Below the pieces are notes generated by a model. That model was not told the DNA's origin. It made no database searches and saw only the letters and a list, made by a program, of their open reading frames with translations. Below, piece after piece: positions 1,553 to 37,346 of a DNA stretch of 64,000 bases. Location of the stretch: assembly GCA_966250015.1 (NCBI GenBank), contig CBINFS010000015.1, positions 6,608 through 70,607 on the forward strand. The letters run 5' to 3'. The stretch is from an uncultured bacterium. Its GTDB lineage: Bacteria; Bacteroidota; Rhodothermia; Rhodothermales; DASSAV01. The position numbers and the translations under genes are program-made. The stretch's first letter is position 1; each line of letters starts with the position of its first letter.

Positions 1553-1559
1553 GTCATCG

Positions 1560-4127: not shown

Positions 4128-4137
4128 GCTTATGTAC

Positions 4138-5919
4138 TTATTTGAGCATGATCTGCCCCCCGGTCACCGGGATAGCCTGACCCGTCTCGTATTTCTGTTC
4201 GATGACGTATAGTATGGCACGAACGACGTCGTCGATACGGCATCCTCTGCGCATGGGTACTTTTTCTTCGTAAAATCGTCGCACGTCCTCCACCGTCTTC
4301 GCACCGGGGACCTTCCTGGCGTCCAGGTACTGCTTGAAAAGTCCCTTCTCCGGGTCCGACCACAACGGTCCATCGAACAGATTTCCGGGACAGATGGCAT
4401 TCACCTTGATGTTGTAGGGCACCAGCTCGAGCGCAAAGCTCTGCGTCAGGCCGATGCCACCGAACTTGCCCCCTGCGTACGCAAAGTTCTTGTTGCTCCC
4501 CGCCAGCCCCGACTTTGAATTGATCTGAATGATATCGGCGAAGTACGTGTCGTCGAACTCGTGCTGTACCTTCATGGGGATCGACGCGTACTTCGTGCAA
4601 AGGAAATACGCCGTGTAGTTTACCCGCGTCACTGCCTCGAAACGGTGCAAATCCATCTCCTCCAGGCCGCCGGCGTGCAGGATGCCCGCGTTGCTGACGA
4701 ATATGTCGAGCCCGCCAAACTCGGCCACCGTCTCGACGATCAAATCCTTTACCGCCACTTCATTCGTCACGTCTACCTCAAACGTCAGGATACGGTCAGC
4801 CGATTCCTGCCCCTCGTGGCTCTCGCGCAGCTCCGCAAGCCGGCTTCCGTTCAGGTCTGCAAAGACAACGTTGGCCCCTTCGGCAAGAAGCGCTTCAGCT
4901 ATTCCCCTGCCGAAACCCTGCGCTGCACCCGTCACAACCGCAATTTTTTCAGGCAGACGTAAATAACCAGGCTCGGGCGCGGGCTCGACCTCCGTTCCAA
5001 ACTCTCCTTCTCCGGCAGCGTACGGCTGAATGCCACCAAAAGAGCTTGCGACTACTTCCGCCTCGACTACGCTCTTGAAGAGGTTGTATGCCCTGACCGC
5101 ATCTTTCCTGCCCGTTCCCCAAACGAATAAGCCAAGACCTTCCAGTCCGATCACGACCGGCAGTCTCCCGTAAGTCTCCTGATAGTTCGAGATGGCCTGC
5201 CGAATCAGCTCGTATTGCCGGCTGAGGTCCGGATCAGATCCGATGAAAAGGGTTTCGGGTCCCAAAATCCTGGCGAGCGTTGGTGTTAGCGCGAGCGGCA
5301 AGTTTGAAAAGGCTTCCCGGTCACGCAGGAGACGTGATGTCGCGACGTTATTCCTGAACAACAAAGACGATGACTTCTGGCCCTTACCAAGCAACATCCG
5401 AATTGCTGGAGCAATCAAGAGGAGTCGATCCTTGTCGAAAGGCTCAGGTGTGTAATCCGGCATTGTGGCCGAGCGGGCGTTGAGCGTTTCCAGCACGACC
5501 GAAATCCGCTCCACGAGTCCTTCCGGCGAATAGCTCGCCACGTACATCCCTCTGTTGCGCACGAACAAAAGGTCGGGATTCGCCCACTCATTCGATGGCT
5601 TTATGTCGGACTCAAACCAGAACTGCTTTTCACCGAAGAGCGCCTGCGCCGTTTTCTGCCCTTCTTTCGCGCAAACGAGTCCCAGCGCCTGGGACGGCGC
5701 CAGAAAGGCAACAAGGTTGCCGTCGATGATGTCGTGTACTACCGCCAGCTCGACCTCAGAGTGTACCGGCGCCGTCGAAACGCGAAGGTTGCCTTCGATT
5801 CCATCCGTGTGATCTACCACGAACAGATCTTCACCTGAGCGCCAGGACAACGAGGAAAGAAAAAGCTCGGTCCTTTTCCTCAATTGTCTGTACAGATCGA
5901 ACAGCGCTGACTCATCCAT
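4138..5919 (-). CDS. Fusion of a degenerate class II aldolase-like domain and an SDR (sorbitol-6-phosphate dehydrogenase SrlD-like)
   Basis: C-terminal TGAAQGFG, SNAG, QINSKSG and YAGGKFGG (YxxxK); N-terminal ~320 aa with PLALTP and PVVIGLEGLGLFVWG, reminiscent of the aldolase II fold. Confidence 0.78.
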   Translation of the reverse strand: MDESALFDLYRQLRKRTELFLSSLSWRSGEDLFVVDHTDGIEGNLRVSTAPVHSEVELAVVHDIIDGNLVAFLAPSQALGLVCAKEGQKTAQALFGEKQFWFESDIKPSNEWANPDLLFVRNRGMYVASYSPEGLVERISVVLETLNARSATMPDYTPEPFDKDRLLLIAPAIRMLLGKGQKSSSLLFRNNVATSRLLRDREAFSNLPLALTPTLARILGPETLFIGSDPDLSRQYELIRQAISNYQETYGRLPVVIGLEGLGLFVWGTGRKDAVRAYNLFKSVVEAEVVASSFGGIQPYAAGEGEFGTEVEPAPEPGYLRLPEKIAVVTGAAQGFGRGIAEALLAEGANVVFADLNGSRLAELRESHEGQESADRILTFEVDVTNEVAVKDLIVETVAEFGGLDIFVSNAGILHAGGLEEMDLHRFEAVTRVNYTAYFLCTKYASIPMKVQHEFDDTYFADIIQINSKSGLAGSNKNFAYAGGKFGGIGLTQSFALELVPYNIKVNAICPGNLFDGPLWSDPEKGLFKQYLDARKVPGAKTVEDVRRFYEEKVPMRRGCRIDDVVRAILYVIEQKYETGQAIPVTGGQIMLK

Positions 5920-5942
5920 TTTGACAGTGAGGGTTTAATCTT

Positions 5943-6033
5943 AAAACGAAACCGGAACCCGCGATAATCTATGATGTGCAAATGAGAAAAAACAACGAAA
6001 GTGTTTGGAAAGCGAAAAACAAGGAAAAAGAAA
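5943..6033. promoter_or_regulatory. Divergent promoter region with candidate DeoR-family operator repeats
   Basis: A-rich intergenic region between the SDR fusion and deoR; AAAACGAAA at 5943 and GAAA cores at 5986, 5997, 6008 and 6030 (11-bp phase), resembling AgaR/SrlR-type TTTCGTTT repeats. Confidence 0.45.
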
Positions 6034-6065
6034 GCGGATATTAAGTTGAACGATTAAATTTGACT

Positions 6066-6821
6066 ATGAATACACCGCTATCGGAGCGCGAACGCACCAT
6101 ACTCGACCTGCTGACGACCGAAATGAACCGGTCGGTGGCTGAGCTGAGCGACATCTTGCAGGTGTCCCGGGTCACCGTTCGAAACGACCTGAACAGCCTG
6201 GCAGGAAAAGGTATGATCGTTCGAACCCGCGGAGGCGCCATTCCGGCCTTCCATCCGGATGTCATCCGGCACCAGCGGACCAGGGTCGATCAGAAGACGC
6301 GGATCGGGCAGGCAGCAGCGGCACTCGTTGAGGATGGAGACACGATTATGATCGAGGCCGGCACGACGACGGCCGTCGTCGCCCAGCACTTGCTGGGGAA
6401 GCACGATCTCCAGGTCGTGACCAATTCGACGCTCGTGCTCTCCGCCCTGCGCAGTTACCCTTCGGTGAGACTGACCATCGTGGGGGGCGAGTTCAGGCCG
6501 GCCACCGAATCGCTGGTCGGGCCTCTGGCGCTCTCAGCCCTCGACAGGTTCCACGTGCGCCTTGCCTTCGTCGGTACGGATGGATTTTCCCTGCAAGGAG
6601 GGCTCACCACCAACTTCCTCGACGGAGCCGAAATCGTACGGAAAATGGCTGAACGAGCGGAGACGACCATCCTTTTAGCCGATTCATCCAAGTACGGCCG
6701 CCGCGGATTCGTCAGCGTGCTGCCGGTTGAAAGCATCCATAAGCTGATTACAGATTCCGAGCTCCCCGAAACGGCCGTTCAAGAGCTTAAGAATGCCGGA
6801 ATCGCCGTAATCACCGTTTAA
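6066..6821 (+). CDS. DeoR/GlpR family transcriptional regulator
   Basis: N-terminal HTH (VSRVTVRNDLNSLAGKG..RTRGGA) and DeoRC sensor domain (EAGTTT, VVTNS, LADSSK). Confidence 0.93.
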   Translation: MNTPLSERERTILDLLTTEMNRSVAELSDILQVSRVTVRNDLNSLAGKGMIVRTRGGAIPAFHPDVIRHQRTRVDQKTRIGQAAAALVEDGDTIMIEAGTTTAVVAQHLLGKHDLQVVTNSTLVLSALRSYPSVRLTIVGGEFRPATESLVGPLALSALDRFHVRLAFVGTDGFSLQGGLTTNFLDGAEIVRKMAERAETTILLADSSKYGRRGFVSVLPVESIHKLITDSELPETAVQELKNAGIAVITV

Positions 6822-23587: not shown

Positions 23588-24269
23588 GGTTACCTTTACC
23601 TATTTCAGTCTCTTCGGGAAGCCTGGCGATGACCGTCAACCCCGCGGAAACACGGTCACCAACCCTGGCGATGACCTCCACTTCCGGTGGGACCAGCACG
23701 TCCATTCGTGATCCGAATTTGACGATGCCAAAACGCTGGCCAGCCGTTACGACGTCCCCGGGCTTGAGATCGAACACGATCCTGCGCGCCACGGCTCCCG
23801 CGATTTGTTTAAATAGTATCTTTATGCCGCTGGGGTGAAGCATCCCAATTTCCGACCGCTCGTTCTTTTCGCTCGCCTTGGGGTGCCAGGCTACCAGGTA
23901 TTCGCCCTTAAAATAGTTGACGTATTCGATCTTCCCATTGGCCGGCACTCGATTGACGTGAACGTTGAGCGGTGAGAGAAAGATCGAAATCTGCCTGGCA
24001 GGACCCTTAAGATAGAGCGGCTCCTCGACCTCGATTATTTGGACAACTTTACCGTCAGCCGGTGCAAGAATAAGAAGACCTTCTGCCGCCTCATCGGGTG
24101 GTATGCGCTGCGGATCTCTGAAAAAGTACAGCGTAAATCCTACGAGAACGGTCGCAAGCACTATGAGTACCGGTCGCAGGGCACCCGGCAGCATAAAGGC
24201 AATAGCGACCAGGAGGACTGCAATAAAAACCACCACACCGATGATAGAGTATCCTTCTCTTGCAAACAC
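23547..24269 (-). CDS. psd: Phosphatidylserine decarboxylase proenzyme
   Basis: FFRDP, APADGKV, IFLSPLNVHVNR and KFGSRMD (GS autocleavage site). Confidence 0.95.
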   Translation of the reverse strand: MFAREGYSIIGVVVFIAVLLVAIAFMLPGALRPVLIVLATVLVGFTLYFFRDPQRIPPDEAAEGLLILAPADGKVVQIIEVEEPLYLKGPARQISIFLSPLNVHVNRVPANGKIEYVNYFKGEYLVAWHPKASEKNERSEIGMLHPSGIKILFKQIAGAVARRIVFDLKPGDVVTAGQRFGIVKFGSRMDVLVPPEVEVIARVGDRVSAGLTVIARLPEETEIGKGNHVKAEHAGERDVA

Positions 24270-24481
24270 GTTAATTCAAATACTTTAGGAAACCGTAACG
24301 TACGGTTCACGTTGCAAAGCCCCGTCATCAAGGGCAGGAGCGTCAAAATACGCAACCTGTACCCGGGATTGTAGATGAATCCATCGTGATAAATCACAAT
24401 CCCGATTTAGGCGCGATCCTGCTGATCCTTTGACGCCTGAATGAACCTGCTGATTCGTAAATCTGGCAACGATCCGGTACT

Positions 24482-25804
24482 ATGGCACGTGTGTCGTTTT
24501 ATACACTGGGCTGCAAGTTAAACTATGCGGAGACGAGCACGATCTCCCGGGAGTTCGAAGATCGTGACTTCGAGATCGTACCTTTCGGCGCCCCGGCAGA
24601 CGTAACCGTCATCAACACGTGCAGTGTAACGGAGGAAGCCGACAGACAATGCAGGCAGATCATACGGCGAGCGCTCCGGCTAAATCCAGGTACGTTCATC
24701 GCGGTGACGGGTTGCTACGCACAGCTTCGACCCGACGAAATCGCGGCGATCGAGGGGGTAGATGTGGTCCTCGGCGCCAACGAGAAATTTCGACTGTTCG
24801 AAATAGTTCAAGCGTTTGAGAAAAAGGAACGTACGCAGATCGAGGTTTCCTGCATCGATCACGTGACGACGTACGGATCCGCCTATTCCTCCGGCGACCG
24901 TACGCGCGCATTTTTGAAGGTCCAGGACGGCTGTGACTACACGTGCTCCTTCTGCACGATCCCGTTTGCCCGAGGGAAAAGCCGGTCCCAACCGTTGGAG
25001 GAGACGTTGCAGAAAGCAAGAGAAGTAGCCGACCTCGGGTACAAAGAGGTTGTCCTCAGCGGCGTCAACATCGGCCTTTTCGGTCAGGAGCACGGCGTAA
25101 CCCTTCTCGATCTGCTAATCGGTCTCGAAAAAATCGAAAAGATCGAACGATATCGCATTTCATCGATCGAGCCCAACCTGCTCACCGACGAGATCATTGA
25201 GTTCGTGGCGCAGTCGCAGCGATTTCAGCCTCACTTCCACGTTCCACTTCAAAGCGGCGACAACCACGTGCTCGGTAAGATGCGGCGTCGATACCGGAGA
25301 GAGGTTTTCGCAGACCGGGTGAACACCATCAAACACCTGATTCCCCATGCCTGTGTGGGAGCGGACGTCATCGTCGGTTTCCCTGCCGAAAACGAGGCCA
25401 GGTTTGACGAAACCGTCCGCTTTATCGAGGACCTGCCGCTCTCCTACCTGCACGTATTTACCTATTCCGAGCGAGCAAATACCGTGGCGGTCACTGAGCT
25501 GGAAAAAATCGGTGAGCCCGTTCCAAAGGCCGAACGGTCCCGCCGCAACCACGTACTCCGCCTGCTTTCCGAGAAGAAGCGCCACGAGTTTTACCGCAAG
25601 CACATTGGGACCGTACGCCCGGTACTGTGGGAGGGTGCGGAAAAGAACGGGGTGATGTACGGGTTCACGGACAACTACATTAAAGTGCAGCGCCCGGCTG
25701 ACAGCGCCTACGAAGGTGTGATCGAAAACGTCTTCCTCGATTCCTTCGCGCCTGACGGCACGATCCACACCGGTTACGCGGATATGCAGGTGCTCGCGAA
25801 CTGA
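24482..25804 (+). CDS. mtaB: tRNA t6A37 methylthiotransferase MtaB
   Basis: TLGCKLNYAET, INTCSVT, VTGCYAQ, radical SAM CDYTCSFC, and C-terminal TDNY. Confidence 0.93.
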   Translation: MARVSFYTLGCKLNYAETSTISREFEDRDFEIVPFGAPADVTVINTCSVTEEADRQCRQIIRRALRLNPGTFIAVTGCYAQLRPDEIAAIEGVDVVLGANEKFRLFEIVQAFEKKERTQIEVSCIDHVTTYGSAYSSGDRTRAFLKVQDGCDYTCSFCTIPFARGKSRSQPLEETLQKAREVADLGYKEVVLSGVNIGLFGQEHGVTLLDLLIGLEKIEKIERYRISSIEPNLLTDEIIEFVAQSQRFQPHFHVPLQSGDNHVLGKMRRRYRREVFADRVNTIKHLIPHACVGADVIVGFPAENEARFDETVRFIEDLPLSYLHVFTYSERANTVAVTELEKIGEPVPKAERSRRNHVLRLLSEKKRHEFYRKHIGTVRPVLWEGAEKNGVMYGFTDNYIKVQRPADSAYEGVIENVFLDSFAPDGTIHTGYADMQVLAN

Positions 25805-25814
25805 GGTATCGAGT

Positions 25815-26306
25815 TCATTCCAGCGTTTTCGGAAGGACGAGCCACACCAGCGTCCCCGTCCCCTGATTCACCTCCCGCCAGGAGTCGACCTCCAGGTCGA
25901 TACGCGCCATTGCGGCAGTCGGGAAACGAACGGCGGTGCCTCCAGTGAGCAGCCGAATCGTCATGGACAGTGACGGCTCATGCCCGACAACGAGTACGTT
26001 TTCGACGGCGTCTTCTATCGAATGTAAAACATCCAGCACCCCACCGGGGCTCGCTTCGTAGAGCTCATCAGTCACCTGCACCGGTACGTCCCATTGCGTG
26101 GCCTCAAGGGCGACGTCGAGCGTTTCCCTCGCGCGCTGTGCAGACGAGGTGATGCACACGTCAGGCACGAATCCTGTGTCCTTCAAATACTTCCCCATCT
26201 TCCGTGAAGCCTTGACGCCTCGCTTTTTTAATGGCCGCTCGTGATCACTTTGCTCTTCCGTATCCCAATCCGACTTTCCGTGCCTGAAAAAGATGACGTT
26301 TTTCAT
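25815..26306 (-). CDS. sixA: Phosphohistidine phosphatase SixA family
   Basis: RHGKS, SSAQRARET and VVGHEPS. Confidence 0.88.
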   Translation of the reverse strand: MKNVIFFRHGKSDWDTEEQSDHERPLKKRGVKASRKMGKYLKDTGFVPDVCITSSAQRARETLDVALEATQWDVPVQVTDELYEASPGGVLDVLHSIEDAVENVLVVGHEPSLSMTIRLLTGGTAVRFPTAAMARIDLEVDSWREVNQGTGTLVWLVLPKTLE

Positions 26307-26342
26307 GAGTATGTCGCTTTAAGTGTTAAGTCGGCCTGCCTT

Positions 26343-27095
26343 TTACGGAATTACGGAATTGGGAACCTGAACCACCGAACTATTGACCGTCATGATGAAA
26401 ACCGTGATGTACAGTATGACGCCGACCGTTAGTGCAATGGTAAAGGTGGTATATGAGTATCGTAAATATCGAAACTTGAAGGCCAGCACATGCCCGAGGT
26501 TGTATATGTCCACCATCATGTCTCGGTACAACCGGTCAGTGTCCTGAAGCAGTTCACTCATGCTGGTCAGGTATTCATCTTCGGAAAGCCCGACGAAATT
26601 ATTGAAAAACAAGATACTGGTATTGCGCCCTCTCTGCCCCGGCCTGGCTTCCAGTTTTCTACTGATTCGGGGCCGCGCAGCCTGAATCGCATTGACGATG
26701 GAAACAAGGCAACCGATGAGCAGCACCGACGTCGGAATGAGCAACCACGGATTGGCGTCGATCTTTGGTGAGATGGAGGCCAAAACGAACGATATGATGA
26801 TGCCGTTGATCGTGATCATGATGTTCGCCTTATTGTCGGCGAGCGCGCTCAGGTCGACGTGCTGCCGGTAAGAAGTGCGAAACATCGTCTCGATGCCTCT
26901 CTCCGATCCAATCCCCTTATCCTTCTTTTTCTTCTTCTTTTTGTCCTTTCTCTCCTTCTCAAGCTGAGTCGCCTCGACCTGTTCGAGCCTAACCGGATAA
27001 CTGCCAGGATCAGACACGGATAGAGGGGTCCCGACCTCTTTCTCACCATTGGGTGCGGTGAGCCTGGTTTGCAATTTGGTGCGCTTTTCTTCCAT
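26343..27095 (-). CDS. DUF5706 / Pycsar-effector-like (PycTM-type) membrane protein, stand-alone
   Basis: ERGIETMFR...HVDLSALADNKANIMITINGIII, TM helices, ILFF and LAFKFRYLRYSY, preceded by a Lys-rich segment. Confidence 0.8.
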   Translation of the reverse strand: MEEKRTKLQTRLTAPNGEKEVGTPLSVSDPGSYPVRLEQVEATQLEKERKDKKKKKKKDKGIGSERGIETMFRTSYRQHVDLSALADNKANIMITINGIIISFVLASISPKIDANPWLLIPTSVLLIGCLVSIVNAIQAARPRISRKLEARPGQRGRNTSILFFNNFVGLSEDEYLTSMSELLQDTDRLYRDMMVDIYNLGHVLAFKFRYLRYSYTTFTIALTVGVILYITVFIMTVNSSVVQVPNSVIP

Positions 27096-27163
27096 GGGGA
27101 TTATCCTCCCTCGATTTAGTTACTGCCGGACGTTTCGTCCTCGATCCGGTCGGTTTGCCCTGC

Positions 27164-30100
27164 TCAGTAGAAAAAGCCCAGCCTGAGCGTAAACATTTGC
27201 TCCTCGTTTGAGAAATCCATCGTCCCGGTGAGTATGGCGCGGTTGAAAACACCCATCCATAGACCGCCTCCGTAACCCTGATGCCATACCCGCGAGCGCT
27301 CGTGGTCTGCCCACACACGGCCATTGTCCAGGAAACCGAGGATGCCGATCTCACCACCAAGCAGGTAGGTCGAAAAACCGAATAGCCGAGCCCTTAGCTC
27401 GACGTTCTGAAACACGCTGCTTCGTCCTGAAAACCGGGTGCTGCGATAACCGCGGAGGTTGTCCTTACCGCCGAGCGTGCTGGCCGCATAGTAAGGCATC
27501 GATCCCAACACGTGCTCGGCTCCTACACGAACCGCCAGCGTTATCGGTGACCGAACGCCTTGAGAGAAATAGACGACGAGCTCCGTTCCTGCCCTCGTAT
27601 AATCGTCTTTCGCGTGCCGGAGGCCGTAATGTACGCCAACTCTTGCCTCCCACTTGTAGCCGTACTTCGGGTTGACCTTGTTATCGACCGTATTGATTGA
27701 GAGGGCGGTCTCCGCACCGGCGTACCACTGATCCTGGAACACCTCGTCGCCGATCTCACTGATGGGCATACCGATAAAACGGCTCCCATCGCGGTGTGTC
27801 TTCGTGACTTCCAGTTTTGGACCGATGGCAAAACGAATTCCCTCGCCAATGTTGTGTTCGACGGTCGGCAGGAACGTAAACTGTGTTATGCGTGCTTCAT
27901 AAAACGACGATGATCCCTCACGCAGAGTCTCATTCCCCATCCCGTAGTAGTTGCGGAGCGCACGCGGGGCCAGCAGGTCCGCCGACAAATGGACGTCCCA
28001 CCCTCCGAGTACGGAGACGAAAAGGCCGTCGTACACCACGTTAAACGCCAGCGTCCGGGCTGCAAAGTTGGCGCGAAACCGTTGCAGGTTTGCATACGGA
28101 TCCTTGCGGAATCCGTGCTTCTTCCACTCGAAGCCGCCTCCGACGTACACACCATCGTCCCGGTTTGAACCGAAATACGTCAGCGGCACGACGAGGTCGT
28201 GCTTGTAAGCCCAGCTATCGTATTCGTTTACGAGCGGATTATGAGATAGACGGATGCGCGTTTCACCGTTGGACTCAGCCTTTGTGCTCGAGACCGTATC
28301 GTAAAACCGGCCTTTCTTTCCGACACCCTTGACCCGTGAGCGGTCCACAAATACGTCGTCACCCGGTCCGCCGACGGCGGTAATGAGGATACCTTCGTTA
28401 ACCTCACCCGATATTTCGAATTGATCGTTGCCGCCGAGCCCGTACAATCGCACTTCATCCGTCTCATCGTCGTAGAACGTGCGCCTGTACATTATGTCCG
28501 AAACCTGACCTTCCTTTGTGGTTTTGTAAACCACAACTTCAGTCTCGTCGTTGTTCTTCCGGATGACTTCGAAGCGTTCATGTTTGTCGCTGGTTACGAC
28601 GTCTACGACGCGTGCGTACAGATCGTAGTAGTCTTCAGCGAGTTCGGGCAGTTTGTCCCTCCTGACACGAAGCAAATGGCCGAACTCCGGTGCGTATAGC
28701 TTCCAAATTGAATCCGGCCAGGCCAACGACGCTTCGTCGATCACATCGTCCGTAAGAGCGGCCTTTACGCTATCCGCAATCTCGATCCAGTCTTGCCTTG
28801 TCAGCATTGAGGTAAATCGCCGGTCCTGCTCCATCCCGTTTTTGGTAAGACCCTTCAGACTTCCATAATCCGAATGGAAATCCTGGAACTTGGGCATGAC
28901 GTATTGGACGAGCGACGGAAACACGCCGTTCATCCGATTGAATGCCCAGTCTCTATCCCGCGGGATGGGCCGGTAGGTGTGCCCTTTACCGTTTGGATTT
29001 TCAAATTCGGCCCATCGGAACTGGTCCCGGTGACGATCCCAATCGCTGATGAGGAAGTCGAGCAGACGAGCTCTCGCAAACGCCCTTTGGTCAATCCGAT
29101 TATCGTTGTCCTTGTTGAGCTTCTCGTACAGCTTTTCGGAACCGATCACGTTCTTCGAGCGGCCGAAGCTGGGCATGTCGGACACGTCGCCGTCCGGGCG
29201 TTCTTCGAACATCATGATTTGCCCGGCGAACATTGCGCGGTAGATCCCGAGTCTGGGGTCATCGGGTACGAAGACGATCTTGGGATTGGTGTGATAGACC
29301 CCTGCGGCTTCGGCAAGTCTCGGGACGACGAACGCACCGAACGGATGTAACGACGAGATCTGATCCTGGATGATGTCGAGCGCAACCGTTTCACGAAGGT
29401 CCTCCGGAACCGTTTTCGTCGGGTCCTTATCAATCGACCGTAGAACGTACTCGTGGCCATCTGCCCCCAAGAGTTGCAACGAGAGGGTCTGCATACCGCC
29501 GCCGAGCTCTATCGGTGTCAGCCCTCCGGCCTCTTTGCTCATGTCGAGAACCGGAACGGTGACAGGAGTAGTCCACGCCTTACGGTGCTGGCTGCCCAGG
29601 AAGAAGGTTTTAAAACCTCCCGCCTCATAGCTCGGATTAACGGCCAACTGCCGCGTGGCGCCTTCGGGCACTGAGAACGTCTCACCGGCAATTTGATCAT
29701 CTGATCCTGTGGGTAATGGACCGGCTTCCCTGAGCGCCACCCGGTAAAGGGTATTCCCCTCTCTACTTTCAGGTACAGCCTCCTTCATATCAAGCCAGAT
29801 CGAGCCATCCCGATGATATTCGATGATGGCAATTCCGGTCGCAGACCTGGAGAATCCAGTCCGGCCCGCTTTCGCAACGTATTCGGGGTTTTCACCTGCA
29901 CCACTGATAATGTGATGCACCTTGCCATCAGGCAAGTGTTGCAGGCTCCGGTCGTGGCCCGACGCGTAGATCAGGTTTTCATGTTGGCGAAAGAGGGTCG
30001 AGAATCCGCGCCGTAGAATTTGGTAACGAGAGGCGGCAAGGTCCTGGTCATTACCAACGAACCGTCTGTAAAGCGGATAGGCCGACCCTATCAACGGCAG

Positions 30101-30874
30101 AGGGAGATACGCGTTTTCAAACCGGGCCGTCAGAGGGAACAGGTGATACCGAAGGGGAAAGTGGCCACCGTGAATGCCCTGTGACCGGATCGGATGGTGC
30201 CCCACCACGATCAGGTCTTTTTTTCGGTTTCGCTTGATCAGGTCGTCGAGCTGGACGAGGAAGTCGCCGTCCTGTTCTTGGCCCATGTCGACGTTTTCTT
30301 CGTCACCTTCATCCCGGAACCACTCCCTGGTATTCAATAGGATTAGTGTCAGCGATCCCGTCAGCTCGATCTCAATCGGCTCCATCGAATGATCCGTGGG
30401 AGCAACGATCTGTCCCACGGATGACGGAGTCGAAGCATCTGCGATCGCTTCCACTTCCGGTGCGTAGAAAGACCCATCGTGTTCTCCCGGCACGAGAATC
30501 ACTCTGCCCTGATACGAGCTGAATGCACGACGGGGAGCCTCTTGTTGAATCTCAGGAAGCCCGGCATACTGAACCTCCGTTTCATCCAGGAAACAACACG
30601 GCAGCCGATCGCCGAGAAAAACGACGCTGCTACGGCTGCCGGCCTCTTCGAGATGGTACGCTAACAGATCCGACATGGGCGAATCGTATTCGCCGTCAGG
30701 CCCGGCGTCGCCCACCAGAATGATCCGGTAATCGACGGTAGAGTCCGACCCTGCGTTGACCGCCGATCCAGATCCGACCCCCGCCTGCTGAACCGTACCA
30801 CACGCTGTGATCAGCAACAGCGCGACGATAGAGATGCCCCTGAGTATCCAATCAGTTCTCATCTTTTTCCTCAA
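27164..30874 (-). CDS. Omp85/BamA-TamA-family outer-membrane lipoprotein with N-terminal calcineurin-like metallophosphoesterase and central atypical-kinase-like domain
   Basis: Lipobox LLLITAC; phosphoesterase GDAG/GDR/GEHD/GHHP/GHD; central GGGMQT..YVLRS..DWDRHRDQ..PRDRD; C-terminal barrel with LRGYRSTRFSG and terminal GFFY. Confidence 0.85.
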   Translation of the reverse strand: MRKKMRTDWILRGISIVALLLITACGTVQQAGVGSGSAVNAGSDSTVDYRIILVGDAGPDGEYDSPMSDLLAYHLEEAGSRSSVVFLGDRLPCCFLDETEVQYAGLPEIQQEAPRRAFSSYQGRVILVPGEHDGSFYAPEVEAIADASTPSSVGQIVAPTDHSMEPIEIELTGSLTLILLNTREWFRDEGDEENVDMGQEQDGDFLVQLDDLIKRNRKKDLIVVGHHPIRSQGIHGGHFPLRYHLFPLTARFENAYLPLPLIGSAYPLYRRFVGNDQDLAASRYQILRRGFSTLFRQHENLIYASGHDRSLQHLPDGKVHHIISGAGENPEYVAKAGRTGFSRSATGIAIIEYHRDGSIWLDMKEAVPESREGNTLYRVALREAGPLPTGSDDQIAGETFSVPEGATRQLAVNPSYEAGGFKTFFLGSQHRKAWTTPVTVPVLDMSKEAGGLTPIELGGGMQTLSLQLLGADGHEYVLRSIDKDPTKTVPEDLRETVALDIIQDQISSLHPFGAFVVPRLAEAAGVYHTNPKIVFVPDDPRLGIYRAMFAGQIMMFEERPDGDVSDMPSFGRSKNVIGSEKLYEKLNKDNDNRIDQRAFARARLLDFLISDWDRHRDQFRWAEFENPNGKGHTYRPIPRDRDWAFNRMNGVFPSLVQYVMPKFQDFHSDYGSLKGLTKNGMEQDRRFTSMLTRQDWIEIADSVKAALTDDVIDEASLAWPDSIWKLYAPEFGHLLRVRRDKLPELAEDYYDLYARVVDVVTSDKHERFEVIRKNNDETEVVVYKTTKEGQVSDIMYRRTFYDDETDEVRLYGLGGNDQFEISGEVNEGILITAVGGPGDDVFVDRSRVKGVGKKGRFYDTVSSTKAESNGETRIRLSHNPLVNEYDSWAYKHDLVVPLTYFGSNRDDGVYVGGGFEWKKHGFRKDPYANLQRFRANFAARTLAFNVVYDGLFVSVLGGWDVHLSADLLAPRALRNYYGMGNETLREGSSSFYEARITQFTFLPTVEHNIGEGIRFAIGPKLEVTKTHRDGSRFIGMPISEIGDEVFQDQWYAGAETALSINTVDNKVNPKYGYKWEARVGVHYGLRHAKDDYTRAGTELVVYFSQGVRSPITLAVRVGAEHVLGSMPYYAASTLGGKDNLRGYRSTRFSGRSSVFQNVELRARLFGFSTYLLGGEIGILGFLDNGRVWADHERSRVWHQGYGGGLWMGVFNRAILTGTMDFSNEEQMFTLRLGFFY

Positions 30875-30934
30875 TACGGTTCATCAAGCCATTTCTTGCG
30901 CCCGTACAGGTTTTCCTCGATGTAAAGAAACACG

Positions 30935-33517
30935 CTAATACCCCTGCGTCTCTCTGGCATAGTGGCGAAGAGAATCCCTCGCCAGCTCACGTATTACCTT
31001 AACGATGGTCTTAGCCGTAATGGGTGATCCTTCGTCGAGATAACGGCTATCCAGGCGGAAGAGCGTGCAACCTCGCACGACGCGCACACTGGCAACAGGG
31101 GAGGCATCGACAAATACGGAGGCCCCATTGAATACGTCACCAGTCCCGAAGCGCCGAACCGGTTGCTCCGGTCCCTCGACTACCAGCTCTCCTTCTCTTA
31201 CGACAAATAACGCCGACGAGGGTCGGTCTGAAGACACTACGACGTCTCCGGCTTCGTATCGGACCGTTTCCAGAAGTCGGCTGATCGTTTCCAGCTCGTC
31301 ACGGCTGAGGGATCGGAAAGGCTCGTGCTCGCCGAGGAACTGCGGGATGTCCGGCGATTGACGGTCGGAAGCAGCGGCGGCAGGCTCCCTTTCCTCCGTA
31401 TCTCGTTTAGACTGGAGATAAACGTTCTCCGTGGACCCTGATATCTCATCTGACTCCTTCTTCAGCAAGCTGTACGTATCAAGCTGCGCGCGCACCGGTG
31501 GGGCCTGATCGTCGCGGATGTACTGGTTGGTCTGCTCCTCGTCGATGATCCTGGCTTTGGTGTTGTCGGCAAGGTGAAGCTCGACGAGCTTGCGTATTTC
31601 TTGCTTCAGCCTGTCGTCAAGAATCGGAAAGGCTACCTCCACACGCTCGCTGAGGTTACGTCTCATCCAATCGGCAGAGGCCAGGTAGTATTCTTCTGCC
31701 CCATCGTTGTAGAAAATGAAAACTCGCGAGTGTTCGAGGAAGCGGTCGACGATGCTCCGGACGCGTATGTTTTCGCTCTGCCCCTTAACACCAGGAACGA
31801 GTCTGCAAATACCCCGAACGACCAGATCGACGCGTACACCGGCGTTGGAGGCCTCGTACAGGCGTGTGATGATTTTCGTGTCTTCGAGGCTGTTCATTTT
31901 CAAAATGATTCGCGCCTCACGACCCGACTGTGCGTGCTCGATCTCCCGATCGATCAACCGGTAAAGTGACTTTCTCAGATAGAACGGTGCTACGAGCACC
32001 CGCTCGAACGAAGGTTTTTCGATCTCGCCGGATAGAAATCCGAAAACCTTCCGGATGTCCCGCGTTATTGTTTGGTCTGCCGTAAATAACCCTTCATCCG
32101 TGTAGATTCGGGCGGTTTTTTCGTTGAAGTTCCCGGTCGAGAGGTAGGCCAGCATGGGCGGGTCGGCCCCTGGAGAGCGAACGACGAGTGCGAGCTTGGC
32201 ATGGACCTTCAGGCCCGGCATGCTGTACAGAATGCGGATGCCGGCCTGCTCCATCTGTTCTGCCCAGAACAGGTTCGGCTCCTCGTCGAAACGCGCCTTG
32301 ATCTCGACGAACGCCGTCACCCGTTTCCCCTTCCTCGCAGCCTCGATCAGGGCGCTCACTACTTTAGATTGAGAAGCCACCCTGTATAGTGCAATCCAGA
32401 TCTCTTCGACCTCGGGGTCGTCGGTTGCTTCGTGGAGAAAATCGACCACGTAGTCGAAGCTCTGGTATGGCAAATGTAAAAGCAGGTCTTGCTCCTTGAT
32501 GGCCGAAAACAGGGAGGGATAGCCACTGATCACCGGGTGGCCAAGGGGCGGCAACGGAGCATAACACAGGTCCTTGAATCCGAATCGCGGAAATGAATGC
32601 AGATCGTGGAGGTTGTGATATCTTCCCCCGGGAACGAGGTCGTCCTCGTCAAACCTCATCCTCGAGGTGAGGACGGAAACCATTTCCACCGGCATGTTCA
32701 GATCGTACAGGACACGGCACGGGATTCCACTCGCTCGTTTTGCCAGCCCCTTGGCGATCTTTTCCTTTAAGTTGCCCGTGTACTCGTCGTCGAGATTCAG
32801 GTCTGCATCTCGCGAAAGCTTGACGGCATAGGCCTGCCCTATCTCGTACTCGGGGAAGATCTGCGGCAGATTGAACCGCACGATGTCGTCGAGGAACATC
32901 ACGTATTGATGTTCCCCGGTGCCCGGAATCCAGACGAACCGGGGCAGAACCGTTCTGGGGACCTCGACGACGCCATAGCTCAGACCACGCCGGTCCTCGC
33001 TTCCATTCACCGGCCACGCCCTGAGAGCAGTCAAGAGAAAGAGGCACTTATCCGGCAGAAACGGGACGTCGCGTTCATCATCCAGAAAATAAGGGCGAAC
33101 GTGCGGCCTGACCTGCTCATCGAAGTATTTCCGGACGAACTCAGCCTGCTCTTCCTTTACGTCCTGGTCGTTGATCAGCCGGATGCCCAGCGCCTCCAGC
33201 TCCGGGAGAATCTCCTCCCTGAATATCCGCCCAAACTCTTCCTGCTGCCCGGTAACGACCCGGTATATCTGCTTGAGCAGCTTCGAGGGATTAAAGTCCA
33301 GATTGTCGATGGACTTCTTTTTTAGTCGAAGCAGGCTTCGCAGAGAGGCTACCCTGACCCTGAAAAACTCGTCCAGGTTGGAGGAGAAAATCGCAAGGAA
33401 GGAGAGGCGTTCGAACAACGGGACCGTCGGGTCCTTTGCCTCTTGCAGTACACGTCCGTTAAAGCTTAGCCAGCTTAATTCCCGGTCGAAATAGATGTAT
33501 TTATCACGTTTAGCCAT
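30935..33517 (-). CDS. ppk1: Polyphosphate kinase 1 with C-terminal cyclic-nucleotide-binding-fold extension
   Basis: DRELSWLSFNGRVLQEA, NLDEFFRVRVA, EIKARFDE, KVHAKL, STGNFN, RFLEHSR and SADWMRRN, plus about 170 extra C-terminal residues with a CNBD pattern. Confidence 0.95.
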   Translation of the reverse strand: MAKRDKYIYFDRELSWLSFNGRVLQEAKDPTVPLFERLSFLAIFSSNLDEFFRVRVASLRSLLRLKKKSIDNLDFNPSKLLKQIYRVVTGQQEEFGRIFREEILPELEALGIRLINDQDVKEEQAEFVRKYFDEQVRPHVRPYFLDDERDVPFLPDKCLFLLTALRAWPVNGSEDRRGLSYGVVEVPRTVLPRFVWIPGTGEHQYVMFLDDIVRFNLPQIFPEYEIGQAYAVKLSRDADLNLDDEYTGNLKEKIAKGLAKRASGIPCRVLYDLNMPVEMVSVLTSRMRFDEDDLVPGGRYHNLHDLHSFPRFGFKDLCYAPLPPLGHPVISGYPSLFSAIKEQDLLLHLPYQSFDYVVDFLHEATDDPEVEEIWIALYRVASQSKVVSALIEAARKGKRVTAFVEIKARFDEEPNLFWAEQMEQAGIRILYSMPGLKVHAKLALVVRSPGADPPMLAYLSTGNFNEKTARIYTDEGLFTADQTITRDIRKVFGFLSGEIEKPSFERVLVAPFYLRKSLYRLIDREIEHAQSGREARIILKMNSLEDTKIITRLYEASNAGVRVDLVVRGICRLVPGVKGQSENIRVRSIVDRFLEHSRVFIFYNDGAEEYYLASADWMRRNLSERVEVAFPILDDRLKQEIRKLVELHLADNTKARIIDEEQTNQYIRDDQAPPVRAQLDTYSLLKKESDEISGSTENVYLQSKRDTEEREPAAAASDRQSPDIPQFLGEHEPFRSLSRDELETISRLLETVRYEAGDVVVSSDRPSSALFVVREGELVVEGPEQPVRRFGTGDVFNGASVFVDASPVASVRVVRGCTLFRLDSRYLDEGSPITAKTIVKVIRELARDSLRHYARETQGY

Positions 33518-33832
33518 TCAAGGATTGATGAACGTGGAGGGAATCTCTCAAAAAAGCGAGCGACCGGGGAAGTATGGACGTCCGGACCAAAAGTACGCCG
33601 AAACAAGGTGCGACATACGAGACTTCGGCTTATGATTATTGCGCTTTGGCGCACCGGTTATGTTTCGGATAAACAAGAACGTCCGTCAGATGGTCTGTTT
33701 GAAGCCAGAGAATACTTTCTCCCGGTTTGTACCCGGCAACGTTGACGTTTACTTACAGGTCGTTGAATCACTTTTATGACTTTTGGAATGGGATTAACCT
33801 GTATCAGAAGGGTGGTTCTTGTAGATGGGATA

Positions 33833-34222
33833 TCACCTCAAAGCTTGCCTTGATGGCTCCAGTTTTCTTTCGATCTCTACTACCTTGGCCAGAAGCAAAT
33901 CATTTGAGAAGGGCTTCAGAATGTACGCGTCGGCGCCCGCTTCAACAGCTTCCAGCACGTCCTCCGCCTCTTTCCGCGTGGCCATGATCATGATACCGTG
34001 ACGGTGCATCTCACGTTTGCGGACGCGTCGGATCAGCTCGATACCACTCAACCCGGGAAGCTTCCACTCGGCAATCAACAAGTCGACCCGATGCTTCTGA
34101 AGGTAATCCCAGGCCTCCTCACCCGTGGAGGCTGCCTGCACGTCGGTATAACCGGCTTCCAAAAGTGTTCTCACGACGCCCCTCAGGCTGGTGCCGTTGG
34201 CATCGACTACCAATATCCTCAT
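33833..34222 (-). CDS. Single-domain response regulator (CheY-like), atypical (Asp to Glu)
   Basis: MRILVVDA..., DLLIAEWKLPGLSGIEL and GADAYILKPF. Confidence 0.88.
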   Translation of the reverse strand: MRILVVDANGTSLRGVVRTLLEAGYTDVQAASTGEEAWDYLQKHRVDLLIAEWKLPGLSGIELIRRVRKREMHRHGIMIMATRKEAEDVLEAVEAGADAYILKPFSNDLLLAKVVEIERKLEPSRQALR

Positions 34223-34286
34223 TTCGTTTTCTTGTTGACCAAAATCAGAGCCGGGTTGCAGCTGAAAAAATCAAATATGCCCGTCA

Positions 34287-35522
34287 TCAGGGTTCAGATA
34301 CTCGAACGACCACCGGAAAGGCGTAATCGTACCAGAAACGATCGATCAAGTCCGGGTCCGGCTCTCCATCGTACGTCAAGAAGCGATAACGAACGTTGTA
34401 CGGCTGACCGGGATCGATCGCCCAGTCACCCATCTGTGACGGAGCGTAGTTGAAAAACGGCTCATCCGGGTGAATACGCATGGGCTGCGGCGAACGGAAG
34501 TTCTGCGGATGATCGAGTACGGCAATGCCGACCATCTGCCCGTCCACCAAACCCCCGATGTGGCACCACCGCGCCCTGGTAGCGTGCCCATTGCTGCGAT
34601 CCAGACCTTCCGACGTGAGGAAAACCGCATTGTCTGCCCCGTTCCAGTCGCGGTGCCCGCGAAAGCCCACACCACCGTAATGATACTCCGGCAGCACGAG
34701 CGGTGACGCGAAATGGCAGTATTGGACGATTTCGATATCGAATACCCTGACGGGGCGGTCAGCCGACACCATCGGGTAAACGTTCACCTCCCACACTTCG
34801 TCCAGCGCGACCTTGGGTTCGCCTCCGGTCAGGTCGACGTACTGGTTGGAAGCACGAAGGCCTCCTCGTACCGGACCACTCCACGTTTCCTCGAGCCCCA
34901 CCGGTTCAACAAACCCGGTAGAATCGCCCATATTCCAGAAATCAGGAGTGCGGCCTTCAAAGACCGTGCGGGTCCAGGCAGCCCAAATCCCGTGATGATG
35001 CAAATGGTTGGGTGGATAATCATCTGTAAGCATCAACCCGTTCGGGGTATAGACCGGATGGATGTACCCGCCACGCTGGAAAATTGGTGGGATGTCCGGA
35101 CGGGGTAAAGGCGTTTTTTCATAGTGGTAGGTAAGCACCGGCTGGCCAGACTCAGAAATGCTGACCGATCCCTCATCGTCAATCACAGCGACCCGTTCGT
35201 CAGCCAGGCGCTCATTCCCCTCAATGCTTCTGATCCGGTACCGACGGGTTTCTCCGGCCATCAACGAATCCAGAATAAAGGTGGCCGTTCGATCGTCGTC
35301 TATCTGAAGCGGCACCACCTGCCCGTCTTCACCGGCCAGTACGTACCGATCGCCGAAGAGCCCGTCCGGCATGGTAAACGTGACGACACTCCAGTGCCGA
35401 TCGTATGACCCTGCTTCGACGGTTATCGCAAAATCACCATTCTCCTGCGCCAGACACGGCGTGTTCATGAGGAACGCCGCAGCACATAGTGTCGTCAGGA
35501 CAATGGCTGTTTTTCGATTCAT
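34287..35522 (-). CDS. Secreted PmoA-like family (DUF6807) protein
   Basis: Signal peptide; YIHPVYTPNG..LTDDYP..HLHHHGIW and YGGVGFRG; start set at MNRKTAIV. Confidence 0.75.
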   Translation of the reverse strand: MNRKTAIVLTTLCAAAFLMNTPCLAQENGDFAITVEAGSYDRHWSVVTFTMPDGLFGDRYVLAGEDGQVVPLQIDDDRTATFILDSLMAGETRRYRIRSIEGNERLADERVAVIDDEGSVSISESGQPVLTYHYEKTPLPRPDIPPIFQRGGYIHPVYTPNGLMLTDDYPPNHLHHHGIWAAWTRTVFEGRTPDFWNMGDSTGFVEPVGLEETWSGPVRGGLRASNQYVDLTGGEPKVALDEVWEVNVYPMVSADRPVRVFDIEIVQYCHFASPLVLPEYHYGGVGFRGHRDWNGADNAVFLTSEGLDRSNGHATRARWCHIGGLVDGQMVGIAVLDHPQNFRSPQPMRIHPDEPFFNYAPSQMGDWAIDPGQPYNVRYRFLTYDGEPDPDLIDRFWYDYAFPVVVRVSEP

Positions 35523-35672
35523 GATGAAGTCAGAAGAGTTCTCCCTGGCAAAGTGAGGCGGCAAACTGTTGCTCCTGACTACGGGAAGCACACGTTCGAA
35601 TTAAAAGTAGGCCAGGAGGTAAAGAACCGCTAATAGCGACGATGAAAAAAGTATGCCGTCAGAAGTATGTCT

Positions 35673-37346
35673 CTACGTCTGGATGACGCCCGGATTGAAA
35701 TGAGGGATGTGCGGGTTGTGATCGGCTAGCTCGATGCCCATACTCAACCAGGACCGCGTCTCAGTCGGCAAAACGATTTCGTCCACCCAGAGCCGTGCTG
35801 CGGCGTACGTGGGTTGCATCTGCTGCTCGTATCGTGCCATGATGCCCGCCAGAATAGCCTCTCTTTCTTTTTCACTCAACCGCCCAGACTTTTTCGCAAA
35901 TCGGCTCTCCTGAATCTGCAACAGGGTTTCGGCGGCCTGCGATCCGCCCATCACGGCAATTCGCGCCGTCGGCCACGCCAGCATCAACCGAGGATCGTAT
36001 GCCCTCCCGCACATGGCATAGTTCCCGGCGCCGTACGAGTTGCCCACGATGACGGTAAATTTGGGTACGACCGAGTTCGCAACTGCGTTGACCAGCTTCG
36101 CGCCGTCTTTGATGATCCCGCCGTGCTCAGCGCGGCGTCCGACCATAAAACCGGTAACGTCCTGGAAAAAGACGATCGGGATACGTTTTTGATTGCAGTT
36201 CATGACGAACCGGGCGGCCTTATCCGCCGAATCGGAATAAATGACGCCCCCGACCTGCATCTCGCCGGTTTTTGTTTTGACAACCAGACGCTGGTTTGCC
36301 ACTATCCCGACGCTCCAACCATCGATTCTCGCGTATCCGGTTAGAATCGTTTGTCCATAGCCCTGCTTGTATTCCATCCACGATCCCCTGTCGACGATCC
36401 GGGCGAGTACTTCTCGCATGTCGTAGGGCTGGTCGCCACGACCGGGGAAGATCTGCGGGATTTCTTCCGGTGGATAGGCGGGGTCGACCGGCGCGGCACG
36501 CTCGAATCCGGCCCGAGGGCGGGGACCCATCCGCGCGATCAGCTCCCTGATCCGCTCGATGCACGACGCGTCGTCCTTCATCTGGTGGTCCGTCACTCCC
36601 GAGATGGTCGAGTGTGTGGTCGCTCCGCCGAGGGTTTCCGAATCGATGACTTCTCCGATGGCGGCTTTGACCAGGTAAGGACCGGCAAGAAAGAGCGATC
36701 CGGCGCCATCGACGATCAACGCTTCGTCGCTCATCACGGGCAAATAGGCGCCGCCCGCCACGCAGCTCCCCATGATCGCGGAGATCTGCGGGATTCCTTT
36801 GCTTGAGAGGACCGCGTTGTTCCTAAAGACTCGCCCGAAGTGATCCCGATCGGCAAACACTTCGTCCTGAAGCGGCAGATAGATCCCCGCCGAATCTACC
36901 AGGTATACTATCGGCACCTCGTTTTCAAGGGCGATTTCCTGTGCCCTTAGTATCTTTTTTACCGTTAGTGGAAACCAGGCGCCCGCCTTTACGGTCGCGT
37001 CGTTGGCCACGACCACGCAGAGCCTCCCGCTTATTCTCCCCACGCCGCAAATGACCCCGGCAGCAGGGCATCCCCCCTCCTCTATGTACATACCGTCCGC
37101 AGCAAACAGCCCAATCTCGAACCATTCGGCGGCACTATCGAGGAGCCGTTCTACGCGCTCTCGTGCCGTCAGCTTGCCCCTTTCGTGCTCTCGGCGAATG
37201 CGGTCTTCCCCTCCGCCGAGCTTGATCCGTTCGGCCTTCTCTTTTAGACGGTCAACGAGCTGTTGAAAGGATTCTTCTCGCGTCTCACGTACTTCCTGGT
37301 TGATCGAAAGGGGATTCCCGAGGATTGCCAGTTTCGCCTCTGCCAT
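35673..37346 (-). CDS. Acyl-CoA carboxylase carboxyltransferase beta subunit (methylcrotonyl-CoA carboxylase-like)
   Basis: GKLTARERVERLLD, ANDATVKAGAW, GSCVAGGAY and GNSYGAGNYAMCGRAYDPR. Confidence 0.92.
   Translation of the reverse strand: MAEAKLAILGNPLSINQEVRETREESFQQLVDRLKEKAERIKLGGGEDRIRREHERGKLTARERVERLLDSAAEWFEIGLFAADGMYIEEGGCPAAGVICGVGRISGRLCVVVANDATVKAGAWFPLTVKKILRAQEIALENEVPIVYLVDSAGIYLPLQDEVFADRDHFGRVFRNNAVLSSKGIPQISAIMGSCVAGGAYLPVMSDEALIVDGAGSLFLAGPYLVKAAIGEVIDSETLGGATTHSTISGVTDHQMKDDASCIERIRELIARMGPRPRAGFERAAPVDPAYPPEEIPQIFPGRGDQPYDMREVLARIVDRGSWMEYKQGYGQTILTGYARIDGWSVGIVANQRLVVKTKTGEMQVGGVIYSDSADKAARFVMNCNQKRIPIVFFQDVTGFMVGRRAEHGGIIKDGAKLVNAVANSVVPKFTVIVGNSYGAGNYAMCGRAYDPRLMLAWPTARIAVMGGSQAAETLLQIQESRFAKKSGRLSEKEREAILAGIMARYEQQMQPTYAAARLWVDEIVLPTETRSWLSMGIELADHNPHIPHFNPGVIQT

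Follow-up and report, generated by a model that had tools for sequence, protein, structure and literature searches.

A second polyphosphate kinase gene clustered with outer-membrane barrel, PycTM-family and SixA-like genes in a Rhodothermales genome: a candidate conserved envelope module

Within a 64,000-nt (64-kb) stretch of contig CBINFS010000015.1, from assembly GCA_966250015.1 of an uncultured Rhodothermales bacterium, four genes lie in a row on the minus strand. The whole stretch is referred to here as the window. The genes encode a second paralogue of polyphosphate kinase 1 (PPK1), a barrel-bearing outer-membrane lipoprotein, an inner-membrane protein of the PycTM family and a SixA-like protein, and are called P, B, T and S. 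A preliminary description made from the letters of the window had reported four co-oriented genes with gaps of 60, 68 and 36 bp and proposed that they form an envelope-spanning phosphate/nucleotide signalling operon. The open reading frame (ORF) listing agrees with this layout, placing 60 bp between P and B, 68 bp between B and T and 36 bp between T and S. The listed start of B is a TTG codon; an alternative ATG at 30862 is possible and would lengthen the first gap to 72 bp. The four genes are:

30935..33517, minus strand: P (ppk1-b), second PPK1 paralogue, 860 amino acids (ORF listing, Pfam, NCBIfam)
27164..30874, minus strand: B, outer-membrane lipoprotein with a purple-acid-phosphatase-like domain, a kinase-like domain and an Omp85 barrel, 1236 amino acids
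26343..27095, minus strand: T, inner-membrane protein of the PycTM/PucTM family (DUF5706), 250 amino acids
25815..26306, minus strand: S, SixA-like protein of the histidine phosphatase superfamily, 163 amino acids

Co-conservation of these genes was analyzed in three samples: forty relatives from the same order, for which the genome counts total 41 (28 with T and 13 without); T-anchored loci from 80 species, including 27 Rhodothermales/Bacteroidota and 18 Gemmatimonadota loci that were well flanked; and 201 genomes drawn evenly across the phylum. Linkage of B to T is very strong. Of the 28 genomes with T, 27 also have B, which is absent from all 13 that lack T (Fisher p = 8e-10), and the two genes are neighbours, either co-directional or divergent, in 18 of 20 fetched relative loci holding either one. 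Across the phylum sample T is present in 79 genomes (39%), usually in one or two copies and with conserved synteny, and the kinase-like domain of B in 81; 69 genomes contain both, 10 only T and 12 only the kinase-like domain (Fisher p = 5e-30). Most of these pairs fall within ~5 kb, and some are further apart or on separate contigs. The class of PPK1 to which P belongs, called PPK1-b, accompanies T in 20 of 28 genomes and is missing from all 13 that lack T (p = 1.6e-5), a linkage that we judge to be strong. For S the linkage is moderate: an orthologue is found almost throughout the order, also in genomes that lack the other genes. A further recurrent neighbour, X, is a propeller lipoprotein with a Pfam match to SdiA-regulated. 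The preliminary description had suggested that co-conservation of all four genes be sought in relatives; it is evident for B with T and for PPK1-b, and only in part for S. The partners found near T in the well-flanked loci are as follows (Rhodothermales/Bacteroidota first, Gemmatimonadota second):

B: 22 of 27; 14 of 18 (in Gemmatimonadota with no phosphatase domain)
X: 23 of 27; 7 of 18
S: 14 of 27; 6 of 18
Metallo-beta-lactamase (MBL)-fold hydrolase: 13 of 27; 3 of 18
GAF protein of ~800 amino acids: 9 of 27; 0 of 18
PPK1-b: 6 of 27; 13 of 18
Class III cyclase: 5 of 27; 7 of 18

From these comparisons the core of the putative module is T paired with B, with X as its usual companion. Its recurrent partners predicted to be cytoplasmic are P, S, either an MBL-fold hydrolase or an HD domain fused to T, and either a sensor-linked class III cyclase or the GAF protein. 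Recurrence of the MBL hydrolase, the HD domain and the class III cyclase fits the idea of nucleotide signalling. Overall, a class III cyclase is present in approximately a quarter to 40% of related loci. Cyclases in these clusters carry REC or TPR sensor domains, and in one Longimicrobiales locus genes labelled by Pfam as cyclase-TPR, Omp85, His_Phos_1 and PycTM stand in a row. The exact order P-B-T-S was found only in the genus of the window among the loci compared.

Contacts between PPK1-b and the other genes can be very close. In 7 loci the stop codon of PPK1-b overlaps the start of T by 4 bp, an arrangement frequent in Gemmatimonadota. In one relative (G001) the end of PPK1-b overlaps the following X by 4 bp, another (G006) has the two side by side, and in-frame fusions of PPK1-b with X occur in three Rhodothermales species (L039:2647-6039, L052:2654-6034 and L059:2426-6031). 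Between the two parts come a Pro-rich linker, a Lys-rich stretch and a single hydrophobic helix, the last of which looks like a retained lipoprotein signal (...LLVSQCGS). Such a fusion would leave the kinase on the cytoplasmic side and the propeller on the periplasmic side of the membrane, tying the enzyme to a periplasmic partner. Fusions of P to T were absent from the 80 loci.

P has a PPK1 core at approximately residues 1-690 (31448-33517), followed by a low-complexity linker and a tail with the cyclic nucleoside monophosphate (cNMP)-binding fold at residues ~733-828 (31034-31321). Pfam recognizes all four PPK1 domains (PP_kinase_N, the middle domain, C_1 and C), and the NCBIfam model TIGR03705 scores 774 bits against a cut-off of 466. 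Because P aligns along its full length with the solved PPK1 structures 2O8R and 1XDO and retains the His motifs 'GLKVHAK' and 'LEHSR' in the 2O8R alignment, it is probably an active polyphosphate (polyP) kinase. The tail matches Pfam cNMP_binding (PF00027; residues 752-827, 38.3 bits against a cut-off of 27.5) and the cyclic-nucleotide-binding (CNB) domains of PKG/PKA at 2.6e-8. Its phosphate-binding cassette reads FNGASVFVDASPVASV (FNGAS...PVAS), in which the canonical Gly-Glu and Arg-(Ser/Thr)-Ala contacts are missing, there being neither the Glu nor the Arg. This tail on PPK1-b is confined to the bacterial family of the window. Within that family the G004 orthologue has a canonical cassette (FGELSLF...RVA) while those of G002 and the window are degenerate, which suggests an ancestral direct nucleotide input to PPK1-b that has decayed here.

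PPK1 sequences fall into two discrete classes in both phyla, PPK1-b at 49–58% identity to P and housekeeping PPK1 at 34–40%. The housekeeping class is present in 40 of the 41 genomes; the copy in this genome, on contig C6, is 36–37% identical to P. Gemmatimonadota genomes hold both classes, and it is the T-adjacent copy that is 51–55% identical to P. With the housekeeping enzymes of E. coli and P. gingivalis (1XDO and 2O8R) P shares the full-length alignment, the four domains, the His motifs and a TIGR03705 score above cut-off. PPK1-b differs from them in being a separate paralogue class limited to module-bearing genomes, in its translational coupling to T or X or its fusion to X through a transmembrane (TM) helix, and, in this family, in its C-terminal domain of the cNMP-binding fold.

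T matches Pfam PycTM (PF18967) with 91.4 bits against a cut-off of 27.2 and the PADLOC PycTM model PDLC02364 at 4.7e-22; models of the two-TM (2TM) effectors of cyclic-oligonucleotide-based antiphage signalling systems (CBASS) also match, over the whole core. Hydropathy indicates three TM segments (residues 90-110, 115-142 and 214-244) within a conserved core at approximately residues 83-244 (26364-26849). The N-terminal tail is variable and ends in a Lys run (K47-K60; 26916-26957) that is kept as a feature across phyla, with the consensus KxxKKKKKK directly before the conserved core. The low-complexity DNA encoding this run (26916-26957) is the break point of several public contigs. Orthologues of T are 50–65% identical across phyla. 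Outside the class Rhodothermia, frames with a T match are mostly ~400–430 amino acids long, the length of an HD-fused form found on contig C75 of this genome, the HD domain itself being confirmed for the C75 copy only. We know of no described effector with either a Lys-rich N-terminal tail, as in T, or an HD domain, as in the paralogue. A search of the T profile against the Protein Data Bank (PDB) gave only a 36-residue hydrophobic match to urea transporters, which was taken as chance.

A recent preprint names the family of T the pJV1-SpdB3 three-TM family and describes E. coli PucTM, the partner of a cGMP-producing cyclase, as a hexamer with a central channel of ~15 A (bioRxiv 10.64898/2026.08.12.744502). 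In the Streptomyces plasmid pSVH1, deletion of spdB3 blocked intramycelial plasmid spreading, and SpdB2, a separate protein from SpdB3, formed pores in artificial membranes (PMC4447253).

B begins with a lipoprotein signal (lipobox ITAC, Cys25), and its remaining parts are arranged as follows:

~29720-30736, minus strand: purple-acid-phosphatase (PAP)-like domain, degenerate in the window copy
~28613-29662, minus strand: protein-kinase-like domain (AlphaFold2 and Foldseek)
~28244-28609, minus strand: RTX-like beta-roll (GGNDxF, GGxGxD) leading into the barrel, all-beta in the model
27167-28192, minus strand: Omp85-type barrel (PF01103)

The barrel scores 35–38 bits with Pfam Omp85 (PF01103; cut-off 24) and matches NF047779 at 3e-25, below that model's own cut-off. 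Pfam detects no POTRA domain before it, and the structural model shows the RTX-like all-beta roll there instead. Under the names 'BamA/TamA family outer membrane protein' or 'metallophosphoesterase' NCBI lists relatives of B. In type Vd secretion, of which PlpD is an example, Omp85-superfamily proteins carry N-terminal passenger enzymes, and B likewise has enzyme-like soluble domains, necessarily outside the cytoplasm, before a C-terminal Omp85-type barrel. It differs in having a lipoprotein signal and no detected POTRA domain, and in a passenger made up of PAP-like, kinase-like and beta-roll parts where PlpD has a patatin lipase; release or surface exposure of the passenger is not implied for B. 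A 'metallophosphoesterase' of Riemerella was considered as a precedent for B and set aside, as it is an enzyme secreted by the type IX secretion system to which the available part of the review ties no Omp85 barrel.

The N-terminal domain of B in isolation gives a weak Metallophos match (22.9 bits). Searching the PDB with the single sequence returned nothing useful and a family profile was required; with 68 members this matched purple acid phosphatases, TRAP5 and GAP50 at E ~1e-8. The majority motifs of the family are GDxG / GDNIY / GNHD / GHHP / GHDH, and the B paralogue on contig C75 is also canonical. In the window the motifs read GDAG / GDRLP / GEHD / GHHP / GHDRS, and a relative whose B is 82% identical shares GDRLP, GE(H/Q)D and GHDR at motifs II, III and V, so that window B does not carry the five-motif PAP signature (GDxG, GDxxY, GNH(D/E), H, GHxH). 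Because ligand and catalytic residues are lost from motifs II, III and V, the phosphoesterase of window B is probably inactive, its metal ligands having disappeared. Gemmatimonadota versions of B have no phosphatase domain at all, and T, P, S and X are retained there.

The middle 500 residues of B belong to no Pfam family. An AlphaFold2 model of this region, built on the family alignment, was confident (pLDDT 93, pTM 0.92), and in Foldseek it matched CtkA (3AKL, E = 8e-6), CotH (5JD9, 6e-5) and PI4KII-alpha (4HNE, 2e-4), all with probability 1.0, as well as PI3K. Invariant residues of the family comprise GGGxQT (putative Gly-rich loop), DWDRHxDQ (putative catalytic loop), RDRD (putative DFG-like Asp) and the Arg of YVLRS. 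From the secondary structure of the model, this Arg was tentatively assigned to the beta3 Lys position and a Gln to the catalytic-loop Asn position. With CtkA of H. pylori, CotH of Bacillus and PI4KII/PI3K the domain would share a Gly-rich loop, a DRH-type catalytic loop and a DFG-like Asp; it differs in the apparent replacement of the beta3 Lys by Arg and of the Asn by Gln, in an identity of only ~10–12%, and in lengths that fit fusion to an outer-membrane barrel. The kinase-like family comprises 2,713 representatives at 50% clustering, whose listed lengths fall mostly into two classes of ~1,230 and ~860 amino acids, with some short entries. These match, respectively, the PAP-like, kinase-like and barrel architecture and the kinase-like and barrel architecture.

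S contains Pfam His_Phos_1, an RHG motif (residues 8-10, within FFRHGKS) and the HEP His, and has no signal peptide. Its best NCBIfam match is sixA (TIGR00249) at 63.6 bits, below the cut-off of 74.5. It shares fold family, size and both motifs with E. coli SixA, from which it differs in staying below the equivalog cut-off, in having no known partner of the ArcB/NPr type and in its recurrent neighbours T, B and PPK1-b.

The preliminary description had read the four products as a PPK1 with a cNMP-binding-fold tail, an outer-membrane protein with phosphoesterase and kinase-like domains, a Pycsar-effector-like membrane protein and a phosphohistidine phosphatase. For T this reading stands (PF18967, PADLOC PycTM and three TM segments). 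The PPK1 domains and CNB fold of P are also there, with a cassette that lacks the Glu and Arg. Both fold calls for B were upheld, the kinase-like one because the confident AlphaFold2 model matches CtkA, CotH and PI4KII-alpha and the phosphoesterase one by the family profile, with degenerate motifs in the latter. For S, family and motifs agree with the assignment, and the score stays below the cut-off for the sixA equivalog itself.

Other parts of the module lie elsewhere in the genome. As the preliminary description stated, no cyclase gene is present in the 64 kb of the window, and the genome-wide search for class III cyclases that it called for, done with tblastn, found one. This is a REC-cyclase of 466 amino acids (C10:127362-128762) that matches PADLOC PycC models at 3.9e-25 and whose cyclase domain is 64% identical to that of the REC-cyclase which the relative G023 encodes next to T and the MBL hydrolase (L018). 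Its neighbours within C10:123560-129199 are two histidine kinase genes and another receiver gene; it is possible that this two-component neighbourhood is an input pathway for the module. Contig C75 contains a paralogous module (208-6358), in which an HD-fused PycTM protein of 393 amino acids is encoded on the minus strand and, divergent from it, an X of 320 amino acids and a B paralogue of 1260 amino acids with fully canonical PAP motifs. At C40:24258-26001 a stand-alone metallophosphoesterase gene (245 amino acids) immediately precedes the gene of a third X-like propeller lipoprotein (293 amino acids), indicating that the propeller-phosphoesterase pairing exists also without a barrel. A GAF protein of ~810 amino acids, a neighbour of the module in other Rhodothermales, is encoded at C55:17722-20163. 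Its family is 40–48% identical across many phyla, with source names including Nitrospinota, Desulfobacteraceae, Chlorobi, Rokuibacteriota and others. The idea that the GAF protein is a hidden cyclase found no support in a profile-profile comparison with class III cyclases; the best folds for its full-length model were a phytochrome-linked adenylate/guanylate cyclase and soluble guanylate cyclase, with whole-length TM-scores of only ~0.18.

A purely nutritional explanation would have B and X hydrolyse organophosphates at the cell surface and PPK1-b store polyP, with T and S ancillary and no role for cyclic nucleotides. The B-family consensus, with all five PAP motifs and its matches to TRAP5/PAP structures, agrees with this, as do the pairing of X with a small metallophosphoesterase on C40 and the linkage of PPK1-b to the module; the propeller clan of X includes phytase-like enzymes. 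However, such scavenging fails because the phosphatase domain is dispensable, being probably dead here, where ligand and catalytic residues are missing, and absent in Gemmatimonadota, where the other genes persist. What stays invariant in B is instead its kinase-like domain and barrel, partners of the cyclase, MBL hydrolase, HD and GAF types keep recurring, and no pst/phoU-type genes were found among the window flanks or the recurrent neighbours. We therefore consider scavenging and storage unlikely.

The cluster could also be a real B-T unit that has come by chance to have an unrelated second ppk1 on one side and a general housekeeping sixA on the other. The order of P, B, T and S varies widely and the genes are frequently scattered (P lies 1 Mb from B-T in G027), S orthologues exist in module-free genomes, and the exact order seen here is limited to one genus. 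Against this, PPK1-b is restricted to genomes with T, its adjacency to T, X and B recurs independently in the two phyla, in some cases as a 4-bp overlap or as an in-frame fusion of PPK1-b, TM helix and X, and S is next to T in 20 of the 45 well-flanked loci from both phyla. Chance adjacency is thus quite improbable.

Phage defence, which the preliminary description had left as a possibility, is very improbable. It would make T the abortive-infection effector of a Pycsar/Pucsar-type system whose cyclase is encoded elsewhere, the other genes being accessory or unrelated, and it draws on the homology of T to the three-TM effectors and the CBASS 2TM models, on the class III cyclases adjacent to T in some relatives and on the PycC match of the C10 cyclase. 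Yet any class III cyclase is expected to match PycC models, those in the clusters carry REC/TPR sensors, and the only one in this genome lies on another contig among two-component genes. T itself evolves slowly, is widespread and keeps its synteny, unlike fast-evolving, patchily distributed defence genes, and its constant partners (an Omp85 barrel of the outer membrane that bears a kinase-like domain, the propeller lipoprotein and the second PPK1) are known from no described Pycsar locus. A radical-SAM methylthiotransferase-like gene is convergent with S, the stop codons being separated by 10 bp (25805-25814), and the further flanks encode phosphoenolpyruvate carboxylase, ClpS, PurS, Pss/Psd, a DUF6807 protein and an acyl-CoA carboxyltransferase; these are core metabolism genes, and the setting is not a defence island.

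The explanation that we favour, at a probability of roughly 0.55, is that a housekeeping module conserved in Bacteroidota (including Rhodothermales) and in Gemmatimonadota, with a proposed function in phosphate/nucleotide signalling, is represented by these four genes in a compacted copy particular to the genus. The window copy appears to be a derived one, with both the PAP motifs of B and the cNMP cassette of P degenerate. Gene linkage, folds and fusions are what the analysis shows, and from them we infer a mechanism, each single step of which is much less certain than the module itself. A sensor cyclase, here perhaps the C10 REC-cyclase, would make a cyclic nucleotide acting on T, which by analogy with its defence relatives may be an oligomeric membrane gate. 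T would couple PPK1-b, as a polyP maker at the inner membrane, to the periplasmic and outer-membrane pair of X and B, and the kinase-like domain of B might bind or transfer phosphoryl groups. MBL or HD hydrolases together with the SixA-like enzyme would turn over the signal or a phospho-His intermediate, S resetting phospho-His, plausibly the autophosphorylation intermediate of PPK1-b. In this genus PPK1-b would have gained its cNMP-fold tail, now degenerate, and B would have lost its phosphatase metal ligands.

Several points weigh against this explanation. Approximately 30% of the sampled Rhodothermales genomes with T have no PPK1-b, so the core does not require polyP synthesis, and S orthologues persist in genomes free of the module (G018, G003 and G031). 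The window has neither X, nor the MBL hydrolase, nor any cyclase, and coupling would therefore have to act in trans. The cassette of P is without the Glu and Arg that bind cNMP, and the limitations section of the preprint leaves the action of the nucleotide on the PycTM-type protein unresolved (bioRxiv 10.64898/2026.08.12.744502). With regard to B, 'kinase' may be the wrong chemistry and not ordinary ATP-dependent phosphorylation, because an invariant Arg takes the position assigned to the ATP-anchoring beta3 Lys and the periplasm is not expected to contain ATP. Public sequencing runs labelled as RNA, available only as contigs, show flat depth over the window and contigs up to 82 kb; they probably contain DNA, making them uninformative on co-transcription. 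The literature searched holds no experiment on any module member, the functional steps being inferred. As for the envelope-spanning phosphate/nucleotide module of the preliminary description, the idea of a functional linkage survives the co-conservation analysis, without obligatory polyP synthesis and with a phosphoesterase that is probably inactive here. Surface phosphorylation, gating of T by a nucleotide and an action of SixA on phospho-PPK1, all raised in that description, are at most hypotheses.

A more far-reaching version of this signalling module, which is speculative and to which we give only a small chance, is that PPK1-b, T, X and B would form an envelope-spanning, synthase-dependent apparatus presenting polyP or derived phosphoryl groups outside the cytoplasm, switched by a cyclase. 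The kinase-like domain of B would take polyP in place of ATP as its phosphoryl donor, and T would be of the type ancestral to Pycsar/CBASS effectors. The yeast VTC complex couples polyP synthesis to membrane translocation, and the likeness to it is one of functional analogy only: in both, a polyP synthase has a membrane component of its own to which it is linked, either physically or genetically. There is no homology between the two, the TM helices of T have no conserved basic lining and translocation here is speculation. A polyP-conducting pore formed by T was likewise set aside as less likely, since its TM helices have no conserved basic residues.

Full-text literature searching returned no paper linking the PycTM effector family or DUF5706 with a polyphosphate kinase, and the papers retrieved in looking for an Omp85 protein that combines metallophosphoesterase and kinase-like domains were all unrelated. 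In the literature searched, as in the preliminary description, no described pathway combines these parts. Should the linkage be functional, an envelope system undescribed in the searched papers would be present in much of Bacteroidota and Gemmatimonadota, and a dedicated second PPK coupled to membrane and periplasmic partners would bear on the localisation and control of bacterial polyP synthesis. It would also mean that a protein-kinase-like domain is exported and anchored at the outer membrane, where ATP is unexpected. To our knowledge, the membrane-effector family of T has been described so far from cyclic-nucleotide phage defence only, and a housekeeping T could reveal a pre-immune role of membrane effectors and of their nucleotide sensing. 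Close homologues of T are named 'Pycsar system effector family protein' by NCBI, so such loci are easily counted as defence loci.

Upstream of ppk1-b, across a 315-bp gap, the window contains one more gene of potential relevance:

33833..34222, minus strand: stand-alone receiver-domain gene, 129 amino acids (Pfam Response_reg, 85 bits)

It occupies the same position in the nearest relative (L133), in which B is 82% identical and the order REC-P-B-T-S is identical. Its phospho-acceptor position is a Glu (LLIAEWKLPG) and DAN replaces the usual acidic pair, and the product looks like a pseudo-receiver. Whether it belongs to the module is uncertain. An origin as a remnant of a cluster REC-cyclase was rejected, as it is ~30% identical to the receiver domains of those proteins and other receivers in the genome are equally close. 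Promoter-like sites at the locus were no commoner than in shuffled sequence, and no convincing intergenic terminator was seen. A search of 24000-36000 against Rfam gave nothing at E <= 1, and hence no known riboswitch upstream of ppk1-b. Sequence nearly identical to 24400-34400 (~99% of sampled words) is present in many unrelated compost, manure, digester, landfill and soil runs, showing the organism, or a strain very close to it, to be widespread in materials of this kind.

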